DNA from: Bacteroidota bacterium
GTDB lineage: Bacteria > Bacteroidota > Bacteroidia > CAILMK01
DNA length: 64,000 nucleotides
Assembly: GCA_036846145.1 (NCBI GenBank)
Contig: DAIUCM010000001.1
Coordinates: forward strand, 7,350-71,349
Direction: 5' to 3'
Shown piece by piece: positions 3,709-60,663 of the stretch. Numbering within the stretch: the stretch's first letter is position 1; each line of letters opens with the position of its first letter. Both the position numbers and the translations under genes were made by a program. The notes beneath the pieces are model-generated. The model saw only the letters and a program-made list of their open reading frames with translations, was not told the DNA's origin and did no database searches.

Positions 3709-3736
3709 CATATATGTTAGACCTAAAAAATGCTTT
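3709..3736 (+). repeat. bipartite motif copy CATATATG-N13-ATGCTTT, 32 nt upstream of the GmrSD-like gene
   Basis: ctCATATATGttagacctaaaaaATGCTTTaa. Confidence 0.7.
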
Positions 3737-8572: not shown

Positions 8573-9901
<1,329 letters not shown>

Positions 9902-9996
9902 TTATTAATGATTGAATGACTGAGGGATTGAATGATTGAATATTTAAGTCTTTATTTTCAATTCTCATATATCATTCGTTCGAAAAATGCTTTGAT

Positions 9997-33009: not shown

Positions 33010-33047
33010 AATTAATTTATGAATTTGGAAATATTATAATGAAGCTG

Positions 33048-33075
33048 CATATATGGTTTTGCTGAAAAATGCTTT
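33048..33075 (+). repeat. bipartite motif copy 39 nt upstream of rpoC
   Basis: gCATATATGgttttgctgaaaaATGCTTTtg. Confidence 0.7.
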
Positions 33076-33085
33076 TGTTCAGTTT

Positions 33086-33162
33086 GAAAGTTGTAAGGTT
33101 GCAAGGTTGTAAAGTTGCCGCGATGCGCAGAAACCTTTCAACCTTGCAACTTTTCAACTTTC
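33086..33162. repeat. imperfect 24-bp inverted repeat (hairpin) in rpoB-rpoC spacer
   Basis: Arms GAAAGTTGTAAGGTTGCAAGGTTG (33086-33109) and CAACCTTGCAACTTTTCAACTTTC (33139-33162) are separated by 29 nt. Flanked by two copies of the CATATATG...ATGCTTT motif. Confidence 0.7.
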
Positions 33163-33173
33163 TAAACCAATTC

Positions 33174-33201
33174 CATATATGCAACCTCAAAAAAATGCTT
33201 T
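33174..33201 (+). repeat. bipartite motif copy overlapping the rpoB stop codon
   Basis: cCATATATGcaacctcaaaaaaATGCTTTag. The rpoB stop (complement) is at 33200-33202. Confidence 0.7.
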
Positions 33202-36200
33202 AGTCTAGTTTAATGTCAAGTGCCAAACCTTTCAGCTCATTCAGCAATACGTTGAAGGACTCCGGAATGCCAGGCTCAGGAAGATTATCTCCCTTAACAA
33301 TGGCTTCGTAAGTCTTCGCACGGCCGATGATATCATCAGATTTGATCGTTAACATTTCCTGGAGTATGTTGGATGCACCAAATGCTTCGAGTGCCCAAAC
33401 CTCCATCTCACCAAAACGCTGGCCACCGAACTGTGATTTACCACCAAGCGGCTGCTGTGTAATTAATGAGTATGGACCTATTGAACGTGCGTGCATCTTA
33501 TCATCCACCATGTGGCTCAGCTTCAGAATGTAAATAACACCTACTGTGGTTGGCTGATCGAAACGCTCGCCGGTTAAACCATCAAACAAATAAGTTTTAC
33601 CGTTTTTAGGTAAGCCTGCCTCGCTGATATAATGATCTATTTCGCCTTCAGTAGCACCATCAAAAATAGGCGTTGCGAATTTCAAACCTAACTTTAAGCC
33701 AGCCCAGCCAAGTACAGTTTCGTATATCTGTCCAAGGTTCATACGCGATGGTACACCAAGCGGGTTCAATACGATATCTACCGGAGTTCCATCCTCAAGG
33801 AATGGCATATCTGCCGAAGGTACAATTTTGGCAACAACACCTTTGTTACCGTGGCGGCCTGCCATTTTATCACCAACTTTAAGCTTACGTTTTTCTGCAA
33901 CATAAACTTTAGCCAGCTTAAGTACGCCGGTTGGTAACTCATCACCAATGGTTAAAGCAAACTGCTCACGCTTGTAACGTGCAATTTCTTCATTTACCTT
34001 AGTTTTGTAATTCTGGATGATACCTTTTACGAGCTGGTTCTTGTCATTATCATTGGTCCAGTTGTTCGGCTCAATCTCGTTGAACTCAAGCTTCGCCAGC
34101 GTTTTCTGGTTGAATCTTGTACCTTTCGGCAACAACTCCTCGTTGAAAACATTGGTTACACTGTTTGATGTTTTGCCATCAATAACAACCAGTAATTTAT
34201 TAATTAACTGCTCTTTAATATCGCCCAGGTTTTTCCTGTGCTCAGTATCAAGCTTTGTAAACAGCGCTTTATCCTTTTCTTTAGAGCCTTTTTCCTTTTT
34301 AGCTCTTTCGAAAAGTTTTTTACTGATTACAATTCCGCCGCCGCTTGGTGGAATACGAAGCGATACATCTTTTACGTCACCAGCTTTTTCACCAAATATT
34401 GCACGGAGAAGTTTTTCTTCAGGCGAAGGCTCAGACTCACCTTTTGGTGTAATTTTACCAATAAGAATATCGCCTTCTTTAACTTCAGCACCAATACGTA
34501 TCAAGCCATTTTCATCCAGGTTACGGGTAGCTTCTTCGCTTACGTTAGGAATATCGTTTGTAAACTCCTCCATACCGCGCTTCGTATCGCGTACATCCAT
34601 TTCATATTCTGTAATATGTATAGATGTAAACCAGTCATCACGTACAGCATTCTCAGAAATTACAATCGCATCCTCAAAGTTGTAACCTTGCCACGGCATG
34701 AACGCAACAGTCATGTTACGGCCCAGTGCCAGCTCGCCTTTTTCAGTAGCGAAACCATCGCAAAGTACTTCTCCTTTTTTCACCTTCTGGCCTTTTTTAA
34801 CAATTGGCTTCAGGTTTACGCATGAGTTCTGGTTTGTTCTTCTGTATTTTACCAGATTGTAAGTACGCACATCTGTATCGAAATCGAGCAAACGAGTTGT
34901 CTCATCACGATCATAACGCACTACAATTTTAAATCCATCTACATAATCAATAACGCCATCATTTTCTGCAATAATCAGCGCTCTCGAATCTTCAGCAATA
35001 CGACCTTCGATACCTGTTCCAACAATCGGCGCCTGCGGACGCAATAAAGGAACCGCCTGGCGCTGCATGTTCGAGCCCATGAGCGCACGGTTGGCATCAT
35101 CATGCTCAAGGAAAGGAATTAAGGATGCAGCAATTGATACGATCTGGTTTGGCGAGACATCCATGTATCCAAGGTCATTCGGATCCACGATGTTGAAGTC
35201 ACCACTCTGGCGCGCTTTAACTTTATCATTAACAAAATTGCCACTCGAATCGAATTTGGCATTTGCCTGCGCAATTACCTTATCATCTTCTTCCTCTGCA
35301 CTTAAATACTCAACAGGAGCATTTAATTGAATTTTACCTTCTTCTACTCTGCGGTATGGCGTTTCTATAAAGCCCATGCTATTTATTTTAGCATAAACTG
35401 AAAGAGAAGAAATCAAACCGATATTCGGACCTTCAGGCGTTTCGATAGTACATAAACGGCCATAATGTGTATAGTGAACGTCACGAACCTCGAAACCAGC
35501 TCTTTCGCGAGAAAGACCACCAGGGCCAAGTGCAGACATTCTTCGCTTATGCGTAATCTCAGCAAGCGGATTGGTTTGATCCATGAACTGAGATAGCTGG
35601 TTTGTACCGAAGAATGAGTTTATAACGGAAGAAAGTGTTCTTGAGTTAATCAGATCCGTTGCAGTAAAAACCTCGTTATCACGTACGTTCATACGCTCAC
35701 GAATGGTACGCGCCATACGTGCAAGACCCACACCAAACTGTGCGTATAATTGCTCACCAACTGTACGTACACGCCTGTTACTCAAGTGGTCAATATCATC
35801 CACATCTGCCTTACTGTTACTTAACTCAATAAGATATTTAATGATGGAGATAATATCATCATGCGTTAATACCCTAACATCAGATGATGAGTTAAGCCCC
35901 AGCTTCTTGTTGATCCTGTAACGGCCAACTTCACCCAGGTCATAACGTTTGTCTGAGAAGAACAAACGCTCGATAATGCCACGCGCAGTTTCTTCATCAG
36001 GTGGATCTGCGTTACGCAACTGGCGATAGATGTGCTCCAATGCCTCTTTGCCAGAGTTCGATGGATCCTTTTGTAAAGTATTATAAATGATCTCAAAGTC
36101 ATTCGCATCCATATCTTCACGATGAAGAATAATGCTTTTAACATTGGCATTTATTATTAAATCAATATGATCATCTCTTAAAATCGTATCACGCTCAAGT

Positions 36201-47685: not shown

Positions 47686-47755
47686 CATATATATTATAGC
47701 CTTAAAATGCTTTGTGTATTAAAACGCAAAGCATTTTTTGGTTAAGGCATATATG
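47686..47755. repeat. two motif copies in inverted orientation (47686-47713 forward, 47728-47755 reverse)
   Basis: gCATATATAttatagccttaaaATGCTTTgtgtattaaaacgcAAAGCATtttttggttaaggCATATATGt. Confidence 0.75.
47704..47739 (+). terminator. intrinsic terminator after thioredoxin-fold paralog 3, built from two inverted copies of the ATGCTTT half-motif
   Basis: AAAATGCTTTGTGT-attaaa-ACGCAAAGCATTTT then TTGG. The 14-bp stem has one G.U, and the T-run is partly within and partly after the stem. Confidence 0.6.
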
Positions 47756-50004: not shown

Positions 50005-50202
50005 GTTATAGTGAGGTTTGTTTGTATATGCGGATTAATTATTGCGAAAATAAACTTTTTCCATATTTTAATATCATAAAATTACATCTTTAGTAATAAT
50101 AATCCTGGTTGCCTATATATTGGGTTTCTGAAAAATGCTTTGGCCACTGCATTAATGGTTTGTATATCGAAAATTAAACACGTGCAAATCTGTTATAAAG
50201 AC

Positions 50203-50290
50203 ACGCGTAAAAATGCGCGCCAGCGGAGTTACTGTATTTAGATTTTGCTGTACTTATGCTGAGTTGAGCTGGCGCGCGTTTTTACGCGTG
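50203..50290. repeat. GC-rich 22-bp inverted repeat with 43-nt loop in divergent intergenic region
   Basis: Arm 1 ACGCGTAAAAATGCGCGCCAGC (50203-50224) pairs with arm 2 GCTGGCGCGCGTTTTTACGCGTG (50268-50290) with a single T/C mismatch. Confidence 0.75.
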
Positions 50291-50424
50291 CCAAAAATAG
50301 TATATTCCGACAATCAGGTTATACCAGTTTATAACGCAGCAATTATTATTATGAAATATTGAGGTTTTAATACTTTTATGGAGAATTGTACGTTAAACTG
50401 GTTTTCGCTATCAATTAAAAACTA

Positions 50425-56282: not shown

Positions 56283-56945
56283 TCACCACTTAAATGACCT
56301 GTACTTTTTTGAACTGTTTATATCAGAGAGTGAAAAACCATTTTTCATTAAGTTAATAAGTTTAAGGACTCTGATTACCTCCTCTGATTTTACATACGCA
56401 TGTTCAGGGTTGCTCCAATAAATAAACTTATAAGTGTCCGGAGTAGAAATTTCAATGCTATATTGAAGTCCATCTTCAAGGTTAAAAAAATAAAGTCCAT
56501 CTTTAATGAAAAAATTATGCACGCAATCAACCTCTTGTTGATCTTTTAGCTTTAATATGTCAATTTCGTCAAGTATCTTCTGTATAGAATCCCAAGTGTT
56601 TACCGGAGATAAATTAAATACGCCAAAATCCTTGATATATAAATCGTTTGGTGAAAAATTAACCGGAACAACTTTATATTTCCAGTCAATACTTCTTGCT
56701 TTCCACTTTTTATTCGAATATTTTAATTCATACGTAGTAGATGTTGGCGAAACAGATGCATGTGCGTAAAACCTAATAAAGATTGAATCACTATTTGTAC
56801 GTAAATCAATTAATGAATCATGCAAATTTGATTTTATAGTTGAATTAAATTGAACCGTGTCATAATAGATTATCCTCTTACCTATTTGTGCATTTGTACG
56901 CTGTGCAAGCAGAAATGCCCAAAAGAATATTATGCAGAAACGCAT
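56283..56945 (-). CDS. hypothetical secreted protein
   Basis: 220 aa, signal peptide MRFCIIFFWAFLLAQRTNA. Confidence 0.45.
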   Translation of the reverse strand: MRFCIIFFWAFLLAQRTNAQIGKRIIYYDTVQFNSTIKSNLHDSLIDLRTNSDSIFIRFYAHASVSPTSTTYELKYSNKKWKARSIDWKYKVVPVNFSPNDLYIKDFGVFNLSPVNTWDSIQKILDEIDILKLKDQQEVDCVHNFFIKDGLYFFNLEDGLQYSIEISTPDTYKFIYWSNPEHAYVKSEEVIRVLKLINLMKNGFSLSDINSSKKYRSFKW

Positions 56946-57076
56946 TATTAAAGCAATTTAGTAAAAGTCATATTCATTTGAAAATTGACCGCGTAACCGC
57001 CAACAACAAGAAATTCTACACCAGATTTTTGAAGCGCAACAAGAACCTCAGAAGTGTACGCATCAAGAATATTCAT

Positions 57077-57265
57077 TTAAGATTGTGAGATGATTTTGAT
57101 GAAATGTTTTTTCGGCAGGTTTTCCGGATCGTAACCATGCATTCCATAAGCCAGGTTTATACTTTTGCGTAAATGCATTAATCTTTCAACGGGCGTTAAA
57201 GATAAACTGTAAGCTCTTTCTGCTTCTTCCTGCTCTTCGAATGATTTGTATATCTTTAATTTCAT
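57077..57265 (-). CDS. hypothetical small protein
   Basis: ORF-track entry 57077..57340 trimmed to the internal ATG (complement 57263-57265) so that it abuts, rather than overlaps, the upstream 57270..57530 ORF. MKLKIYKSFEEQEEAERAYSLSLTPVERLMHLRK... Confidence 0.35.
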   Translation of the reverse strand: MKLKIYKSFEEQEEAERAYSLSLTPVERLMHLRKSINLAYGMHGYDPENLPKKHFIKIISQS

Positions 57266-57269
57266 AAAC

Positions 57270-57530
57270 TTAGCTTGCCTGCCTGAAAACGGTTTGCTCA
57301 AGCTTGCGGATACGTTCTTCGAAATTGGTGAATTTTTCAAACTGATCTGATAACTTCATAACGGATTGGCGAAGTTCACCAATCGCGAGGTTGGTTTTGG
57401 ATTGCTGATCTACTATTTTGTCTAATCTTTCATCCGTTCTTTCCTGAGATCCTGCCATATCATTTCTCAACCCACGCAATTCGTGAAGCAAATCAGCCAT
57501 TAATTCTACCAATCTGTCATCTTTGCCCAT
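57270..57530 (-). CDS. hypothetical coiled-coil protein
   Basis: 86 aa. Heptad-like ...LVELMADLLHELRGLRNDMAGSQERTDERLDKIVDQQSKTNLAIGELRQSVMKLSDQFEKF... Confidence 0.4.
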   Translation of the reverse strand: MGKDDRLVELMADLLHELRGLRNDMAGSQERTDERLDKIVDQQSKTNLAIGELRQSVMKLSDQFEKFTNFEERIRKLEQTVFRQAS

Positions 57531-57551
57531 AACTCATCAGCGCTTTAAAAC

Positions 57552-58076
57552 TTAAAACAAATATAAAGATAAAAGTTTCTGTTTGAAATTGTGGTTTCCA
57601 TATGTGGTTTGGCTGGAAAATGCTTTCGTAATTTGTTGGCATTTGCTGGCGCGAGCTTGTAGCTCGTGCATCGTTCTATTGTAGTTGGCACGAGCTACAA
57701 GCTCGCGCCAGCGATTGGGCTCATTTAACCTAAGCGATCTTTTATTAATTTTAAATGTATCAAAGGCCAGGTTCAGAGTTAAATCCAATTTTTTAGCCCT
57801 ATTAATTATGCTATCAACTTGTATTGAATTACTTTTCAAAAAGGTTAAATTATTTCTTATTTCTCCATATAGTATTTTGTAAATCTTTTGGTTTTCTACT
57901 GGCATGAAGTACTCCGGATGTGAAAAATACTCTAATTGGCTGGTATTCAAGTTTTGTGTATATTCCGAAGAAATGCTGTCTGCAATTAGATTGAAATTAT
58001 TTCCGGAATTAGGATTTTTACAGCTCAGATTTGTAATTAGCACCAACAACAAGAATATTGAGAAAGATACTTTCAT
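57552..58076 (-). CDS. hypothetical lipoprotein whose 3' end runs through a repeat element
   Basis: Taken from the internal ATG (complement 58074-58076): MKVSFSIFLLLVLITNLSC-KNPN lipobox. The track's 58160 start is a TTG. The last ~55 codons are encoded by a CATATGTG...ATGCTTT motif copy plus a perfect 25-bp inverted repeat. Confidence 0.5.
   Translation of the reverse strand: MKVSFSIFLLLVLITNLSCKNPNSGNNFNLIADSISSEYTQNLNTSQLEYFSHPEYFMPVENQKIYKILYGEIRNNLTFLKSNSIQVDSIINRAKKLDLTLNLAFDTFKINKRSLRLNEPNRWRELVARANYNRTMHELQARASKCQQITKAFSSQTTYGNHNFKQKLLSLYLF
57645..57712. repeat. perfect 25-bp GC-rich inverted repeat with 18-nt loop
   Basis: GCTGGCGCGAGCTTGTAGCTCGTGC (57645-57669) / GCACGAGCTACAAGCTCGCGCCAGC (57688-57712). 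Exact reverse complements. Confidence 0.85.
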
Positions 58077-58191
58077 TAAGTAATAACGATTTTTCGGCAA
58101 GATAATATATGTAACAATAAAAATGCCCCAACGCTTTTGCGTTGAGGCATTTTCAATCAATGTTATATATGCGTACGGAGCGTGGATGATA

Positions 58192-60159: not shown

Positions 60160-60332
60160 TTTTATAAAAGTTTTTAGGTTTTAAATTTATTTACTCCGGC
60201 TTACTCTAAAGTTGTGCCAAAGGATTTTTAAGACATTTTTGCAAAGGATTGTGGAACTTTTGTCAGGTGGAACAATGAAAGAATGTAAGATTGAATGAAT
60301 GTAAGAATAAAATGACTGAATTTGCTTTCGCG

Positions 60333-60360: not shown

Positions 60361-60663
60361 TTGTCTGAAATGTAATTTTTTTGATTTTGGTGGTTGATAT
60401 GATTTTTAAGTAATTAATGGGATATAAAATTGAAATTCGATAAAGGTTAGACCTGCAACTTCTTGAAAAAGTGGCAGGCCTGCGCGCTGAACTATTAGCT
60501 ACATACAAGTTATTTCATTTATAATCCCAATGCATTTTTCATCATTAATATATATGTAAACGAAATCAAACGAATATCAAAATCAAATAAAATCAAAGTT
60601 CTGACATGTATTTAAACCAGAATTAAAAAATTTGCGTTAGGCAAAAAGAAGGAGATAAAGATT

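Follow-up and report, generated by a model that had tools for sequence, protein, structure and literature searches.

A perfect inverted repeat at the 3′-end of an orphan open reading frame

We analyzed a 64,000-nucleotide (64-kb) stretch of a metagenome-assembled contig, hereafter the window, whose reads are found in SRR3961739 from a hot-spring study in central India. Near the 3′-end of one of its open reading frames (ORFs), the window carries a 68-bp hairpin with perfectly complementary arms next to a copy of a bipartite motif. The features of this locus, and of a related one in the same window, are listed below, with the repeat units named according to the probable assignment argued for in later sections:

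57552–58076, minus strand: orphan ORF with a lipoprotein-like N-terminus; it spans the REP doublet, the motif copy and the promoter box of the next gene
57558–57565, minus strand: −7 promoter box of Bacteroidetes type (TATATTTG); the ATG of the gene at 57270–57530 (minus strand) follows 27 nt downstream
57599–57626, plus strand: copy of an apparently lineage-wide intergenic motif, tttcCATATATGc....gccaAAAAATGCTTTrg; it neighbours the REP doublet and is not part of it
57645–57669, plus strand: REP unit (GCTGGCGCGAGCTTGTAGCTCGTGC) forming the left arm of the doublet; its 26th base is A, usually C; the exact 25-mer occurs in 114 Bacteroidota genome stretches
57670–57687, no strand: 18-nt spacer between the two REP units
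57688–57712, minus strand: REP unit, right arm of the doublet, inverted; the full 26-mer, ending in GTGCC, occupies 57687–57712
50202–50224, minus strand: variant REP unit forming the left arm of the second doublet, whose units are divergent
50268–50292, plus strand: variant REP unit, right arm of the second doublet (GCTGGCGCGCGTTTTTACGCGTGCC), which folds at −10.7 kcal/mol as DNA

The original prediction for this locus was that an exact 25-bp inverted repeat and a motif copy upstream of it are embedded in the end of a lipoprotein gene, where they behave as a composite, possibly mobile, unit. The sequence elements themselves are present as described: the two arms are complementary at 25 of 25 positions across the spacer, and the copy at 57599–57626 (CATATGTGGTTTGGCTGGAAAATGCTTT) fits the proposed form, CATATGTG-N13-ATGCTTT, exactly, although the gap between the motif and the repeat (57627–57644) measures 18 nt rather than the 19 nt given. 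Both elements lie within the last 54 codons of the ORF, as claimed, and the palindrome is translated there as a mirrored peptide, ...RELVARANYNRTMHELQARAS....

Beyond its perfect arms, the inverted repeat stretches to 30 nt at 93% (57640–57717). In the minus-strand transcript the hairpin folds at −54.4 kcal/mol as RNA, compared with −22.2 ± 2.9 kcal/mol for shuffled sequences (z = −11.2; none of 200 shuffles folded as well), and the 68-mer folds at −35.2 kcal/mol as DNA (z = −11.3), so that chance does not explain the inverted repeat. Searches of Rfam at gathering thresholds returned only tRNAs; at permissive thresholds the hairpin drew sub-threshold matches to miRNA and sRNA hairpins, which we rejected as spurious. 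The 25-nt arm occurs nowhere else in the 64-kb window, even at three mismatches, and the JGI metagenome contigs searched for the 18-nt spacer together with the arm ends gave no match.

Perfect palindromes are a known class of artefact and the source is a metagenome assembly, both of which would fit a fold-back chimera created during assembly or amplification. We give this origin next to no credence, since an independent Logan assembly carries sequence identical to ours at the hairpin locus; each arm, moreover, recurs in over 100 other genomes, where it often forms doublets.

Each arm folds as a REP-like unit

The arms correspond to a 25–26-nt unit with the layout GCT-GGCGCGAGCT-TGT-AGCTCGTGCC, that is, a 3-nt GCT foot, a 10-bp stem (GGCGCGAGCT/AGCTCGTGCC) with one G·T pair and a 3-nt loop. 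On its own, a single unit folds at −10.7 kcal/mol as DNA (z = −4.5). It has the character of a REP, a short (20–40 nt) imperfect palindrome that folds as single-stranded DNA, and the presence at 57645–57712 of two inverted units that are separated by a short spacer and form one long hairpin is the arrangement of a REPIN. The GT[AG]G foot of canonical REPs is absent: the foot is GCT(G), and GTAG is found only across the junction of loop and stem. The stem is preserved by compensatory changes in the variants CAAGCTTGCAGCTTG (n = 12), CGGGTTTGCAACCCG (n = 2) and the window's CGCGTTTTTACGCG.

The window holds one further doublet, at 50202–50292, in which two variant units are arranged divergently around a 43-nt spacer. 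The variant GCTGGCGCGCGTTTTTACGCGTGCC shares with the main unit the GCT foot, the stem base GGCGCG.../...CGTGCC, the position of the G·T pair and the GTGCC at the 3′-end, while at the top of the stem AGC(T)/(A)GCT is replaced by CGT/ACG, a compensatory change that leaves the fold energy equal to that of the main unit. The likeness between the termini of the 57645–57712 repeat and those of a repeat at 50203–50290, which had been remarked upon from the sequence, is thereby accounted for, as both consist of REP units of one family with a common foot, stem base and G·T wobble. The 9-mer GCTGGCGCG occurs in the window only at 50216/50268 and 57645/57704 (four matches against 0.27 expected), and the window contains only these two doublets, one REP doublet and one variant doublet.

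The same repeat in other Bacteroidota flanks RAYT genes

We scanned for the 25-mer in one genome per GTDB species and found exact copies of GCTGGCGCGAGCTTGTAGCTCGTGC in 114 genome stretches, all of them from Bacteroidota and covering at least five orders. The carriers include many species of Pontibacter and Capnocytophaga, as well as members of Hymenobacter, Adhaeribacter, Botryobacter, Marinoscillum, Reichenbachiella, Ekhidna, Marivirga, Marinifilum and Salinivirga and, among metagenome-assembled genomes (MAGs), members of Bacteroidales, Flavobacteriales, Chitinophagales and Sphingobacterium; in Capnocytophaga bilenii more than 15 stretches hold the exact 25-mer. Within the loci so found there are 274 REP copies at five or fewer mismatches, most of them single units or short doublets. 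Neighbouring copies that lie no more than 120 nt apart are mostly convergent (44 pairs), as in the window, with spacers that mostly measure 21–58 nt and have a mode of 40–41 nt; three pairs overlap and one has a spacer of 93 nt. Among these sampled doublets, the 18-nt spacer and the perfect arm identity of the window doublet are unusual, its spacer being shorter than in all other convergent pairs of the sample.

Elsewhere, the five bases before a REP copy are mostly C-rich (CCCCC or CCCCT, with 78% C at each of positions −5 and −4), and most copies are followed by a C. These flanking bases may represent a target or cleavage context; this C-rich 5′ flank is missing from the copies in the window.

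Several loci have a small gene enclosed by two inverted 25-mers that lie ∼650 bp apart. In one such locus, L081, a 182-aa ORF between two inverted exact copies scores 90.2 bits against the NCBIfam model NF047646, ‘REP-associated tyrosine transposase’ (RAYT; cut-off 80), and also matches Pfam Y1_Tnp. The repeat thus flanks a Y1/HUH gene in other genomes, as in a REPtron. When the L081 protein was used as a tblastn query, 21 of the 114 loci proved to carry a RAYT-like gene. The distance from gene to REP is 3–189 nt in all of these, and in 16 the gene has REPs on both sides. The loci are 8-kb windows selected solely by the repeat, and since a usually single-copy gene turns up in about one-fifth of them, the association between repeat and RAYT is very strong. 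When a Bacteroidales MAG is compared with Pontibacter or with other Cytophagales, the RAYT proteins beside the repeat share 62–78% identity. RAYT genes next to REPs are split or frameshifted in L018, L024, L035 and L049, and the RAYT-like region of L018 and that of L024 contain a REP copy. The 64-kb window itself holds no RAYT gene.

Perfect terminal inverted repeats, together with 25-mers placed ∼650 bp apart around a gene in some genomes, are also what would be expected if the arms were the termini of an internally deleted DDE insertion sequence (MITE). This explanation has very little to commend it: the enclosed gene encodes a Y1/HUH RAYT and not a DDE transposase, copies elsewhere are mostly single units or short doublets, and no direct repeat that could be a target-site duplication abuts 57645 and 57712.

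If REP–RAYT systems were strictly vertical and diverged with their hosts, a single exact 25-nt core in at least five orders would be unexpected. This sharing of the core across orders could result from horizontal spread or from very strong constraint.

Comparison with known REP systems

RAYT subclass 2.6, which corresponds to group 5 of Bertels et al. 2017, is found mostly in Bacteroidetes, and its REPs have been called ‘atypical’, the canonical GT[AG]G foot belonging to subclasses 2.2, 2.4, 2.5 and 2.7 (Quentin et al. 2018, PMC6006769). The REPs given for subclass 2.6 in Table S1 of the same work include those of Spirosoma linguale (GCTGGCGCGAGCATATGCTCGTGCC), Aequorivita (GCTGGCGCGGGCGTCCCGCCCGTG) and Zobellia (GCTAGCGCTCGTTTGTAACGAGTGCCGT). 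When the window unit is set against the entries for Spirosoma, Aequorivita, Zobellia and Owenweeksia, the same architecture is seen, with a GCTGG or GCTAG foot and a stem ending in GTGCC. More broadly, the subclass 2.6 REPs agree with the repeat described here in having a GCT(G/A)G foot, a GC-rich stem of 9–10 bp (GGCGCG.../...CGTGCC) with a G·T wobble and a 3–5-nt loop, in lacking a GT[AG]G foot, and in that, in other genomes, its copies are dispersed and border a RAYT of ∼180 aa. The window unit differs from that of Spirosoma linguale only around the loop, and the exact 25-mer, with its loop region CTTGTAG, is absent from Table S1 and from the paper texts that we searched. The L081 protein has the motifs SHVH, WQ and YVHNNP in 182 aa where subclass 2.6 has NH[LIV]H, WQ and YIH[QN]NP in ∼179 aa; its SHVH departs from the subclass motif.

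Since the same unit design appears in Table S1 of Quentin et al. 2018 (PMC6006769), we assign the hairpin to a known family: with a probability of roughly 85%, the 68-bp hairpin is a REP doublet (REPIN-like) of a Bacteroidota RAYT-associated family. Read in this way, the window doublet is a further example of the little-studied Bacteroidota REP–RAYT system (subclass 2.6), and a 25-bp perfect palindrome in a ‘lipoprotein’ gene is accounted for, which is of value for annotation.

The better-known REPINs of Pseudomonas fluorescens SBW25 and the REP-BIME elements of Escherichia coli, associated with TnpA-REP, share with the window doublet the pairing of two inverted REPs across a short spacer into a long hairpin, and those systems are likewise non-autonomous, with a usually single-copy Y1 transposase and no target duplication. 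The window doublet differs from them in that its foot is not GTAG, its arms are perfectly complementary, its spacer measures 18 nt and it lies inside a called ORF. In addition, the window core is common to several orders, whereas the REPs of Pseudomonas and E. coli are lineage-specific.

The orphan ORF and its tail

REPs are extragenic by definition, and the window doublet lies inside the called ORF at 57552–58076. Across 5.8 G indexed proteins and 1.84 G representatives, the only full-length match to this ORF is itself; exhaustive HMMER searching gave one other, marginal match, at 24% identity over residues 14–102, to a cadherin-like repeat of a 3352-aa protein, and there is no Pfam match. 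The gene caller applied to the Logan assembly gave an identical 174-aa product.

To score coding character along the ORF we trained a 3-periodic Markov model on 26 long window genes. Over the 364 nt that precede the hairpin in the ORF, the frames contrast clearly (−0.03 versus −0.46 and −0.53), and this part is coding-like, though atypical for this genome. In the 90 nt after the hairpin, a length at which the test is weak, all frames score alike (−0.12, −0.10 and −0.17) and within the intergenic range. The last codons of the ORF also hold the −7 promoter box of the gene at 57270–57530, which conforms to the Bacteroidetes consensus TAnnTTTG. The 31-codon tail beyond the hairpin has the look of a spacer that regulates the gene after it. 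Because these last 31 codons lack coding periodicity and hold both the motif copy and the −7 box, we favor, on balance, the view that the tail is a read-through of intergenic DNA, and the last third of the ORF should be treated as doubtful in annotation.

The minus-strand frames are all open from 57644, as far as 57552, 57545 and 57517, respectively. We also considered excisions of 68, 69/70 or 78 nt, and none of them restores a nearby stop codon. A comparison with empty sites was attempted through the downstream 86-aa protein, whose homologues (40–54% identity) lie in unrelated contexts with neither motif nor REP. The surrounding region downstream of groEL (56283–58100) is AT-rich, with 21–35% GC in places, carries orphan ORFs and looks like foreign or decaying DNA; it includes a 42-aa fragment (56948–57076) with a weak match to the DUF2204 nucleotidyltransferase family.

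The original prediction had offered, as a second possibility, that the hairpin terminates the gene and that the annotated ORF is too long. The hairpin does resemble an intrinsic terminator in being a GC-rich stem–loop on the 3′ side of the gene; at −54.4 kcal/mol its RNA stem is highly stable, the tail of the ORF has a non-coding appearance, and the REPs of E. coli influence 3′ mRNA stability and termination. Unlike an intrinsic terminator, however, it has a 25-bp stem with an 18-nt loop, no U-tract and no stop codon upstream. No T-run follows the stem on either strand (the flanks read ...CAGCAAATGCC and ...CAGCGATTGGG), a terminator scan called nothing at the hairpin, and genuine terminators of the window, such as that of groEL at 58120–58156 and the inverted motif pair at 47686–47755, are canonical and built differently. 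Without a U-tract the hairpin is not a canonical terminator, and since there is no in-frame stop before it, the ORF cannot end upstream of it. We consider a terminator function of this kind improbable. The REP doublet may act on the mRNA as a stable 3′ stem, by analogy with E. coli REPs.

It could also be argued that the doublet is an in-frame insertion that was tolerated or exapted, so that the ORF is translated through to 57552. There is a parallel in the Rickettsia palindromic elements, which are 100–150 bp long, occur as in-frame insertions within conserved genes and are not known to be served by a RAYT. Like these, the window element is a palindromic repeat within an ORF that is read as peptide, but it is 68 nt long, its ORF is an orphan and the tail downstream of it looks non-coding. 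The ORF does stay open across the element, the Logan gene caller produced the same 174-aa product, and there is precedent in the in-frame REP insertions within genes that have been reported (PMC6006769). Set against this, 68 nt is not a whole number of codons, coding periodicity is missing from the tail, which is made up of a regulatory-type motif and a promoter box, and the ORF is an orphan, so no conservation backs the tail. Translation through the doublet is therefore possible but rather unlikely.

Returning to the REP doublet, we propose that members of this family are acted on in trans by REP-associated tyrosine (HUH/Y1) transposases. The doublet would have arrived by RAYT-type single-strand transposition, which leaves no target duplication, and would have landed at or just past the end of an AT-rich orphan lipoprotein-like gene. 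As called, the ORF would then traverse the doublet and ordinary intergenic DNA containing the motif copy and the −7 box of the gene at 57270–57530. It would do so only because that strand has no stop codon until 57552.

A bipartite motif of intergenic spacers

The motif beside the doublet is abundant in the window. At two or fewer mismatches, CATATATG-N13-ATGCTTT has 18 matches there compared with 0.24 expected; copies lie, for example, at 3709, 7000, 8238, 9869, 9966, 33048, 33174, 47686, 47728, 54784, 57599 and 61382. The density is about one copy per 2–4 kb, and nearly every intergenic spacer of the window holds one. A metagenome scan with the strict form of the motif returned 94 contigs, of which ∼60 came from one JGI sample, Ga0157371; these do not belong to the species of the window, and each carries several copies per 1–3 kb. 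The motif was found almost only in the window organism and in the Ga0157371 contigs, and it appears to be confined to this hot-spring Bacteroidota lineage, where its abundance gives it a bearing on how gene boundaries are understood.

Pooling the window with the metagenome contigs, and counting copies at one mismatch or fewer, we found 78 of 98 motif copies outside ORFs, although coding sequence makes up 78% of this DNA. Whether a spacer is co-directional, divergent or convergent, the motif is found in either orientation, and many copies directly adjoin a stop or start codon. The consensus extends over 31 nt (tttcCATATATGc....gccaAAAAATGCTTTrg), with no conservation in the flanks.

Two interpretations of the motif were rejected. 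As a Bacteroidetes promoter it fails in that the TAnnTTTG boxes are separate from it, that it occurs in both orientations and in convergent spacers, and that its flanks have no elements at a fixed distance; as an RNA structure it shows no covariation. A search of the literature for the motif half-sites and the REP core as text gave nothing relevant. The motif is probably read as double-stranded DNA. We tentatively suggest that it is an undescribed genome-wide, orientation-independent intergenic DNA signal, such as the site of an abundant DNA-binding protein or an uptake-type sequence, an idea to which we give rather less than even odds.

The abundance of the motif bears directly on the proposal that motif and hairpin inserted together into the gene end as a composite mobile unit. 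Three window hairpins do lie near motif copies: the motif at 57599 is followed by the hairpin at 57645, the copy at 50114–50141 precedes the doublet at 50202–50292 by 60 nt, and the copies at 33048 and 33174 surround a hairpin at 33083–33165. These three hairpins, however, differ both in sequence and in their distance from the motif, and motif and hairpin do not recur together at a fixed spacing. An exact motif match is found in none of 115 REP-bearing loci (the 114 genome stretches and the Logan contig of the window). Conversely, of the 87 motif copies with enough flanking sequence, only ∼8% have a perfect stem of at least 11 bp within 130 nt, and such stems lie upstream as often as downstream. 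Because nearly every spacer in the window has a motif copy, adjacency of motif and hairpin is expected by chance, and the two adjoin because both reside in intergenic DNA rather than as parts of one unit. What stands of the original proposal is that the hairpin is mobile-element DNA, and a joint unit of motif and hairpin is very improbable; the doublet would simply have inserted next to one of the many motif copies.

In some spacers the motif is combined with other structures. Between the convergent genes at 47686–47755, an inverted pair of motif copies folds as a hairpin with an A-tract, a stem and a U-tract (−31.4 kcal/mol). In the groEL terminator (58120–58156, within 58120–58171), a 17-bp stem lies between an A-tract and a U-tract, and a degenerate copy of the motif is re-used; the AAAATGC half of the motif can serve as the 5′ arm of canonical terminators. 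In the rpoB–rpoC spacer (33033–33205), the hairpin at 33083–33165 has 40-nt arms, contains 8-mer repeats (GTTGYAAR) and folds at −46 kcal/mol as RNA; the two motif copies on either side of it are direct copies. Two spacers (9900–9960 and 60160–60330) carry short tandem-like repeats of CATTCAAT and GATTGAAT. Finally, a 45-nt piece of TTGATTT-type repeat at 60558–60601 has 93% identity to positions 857–900 of a metagenome contig (L182) that is otherwise unrelated to the window.
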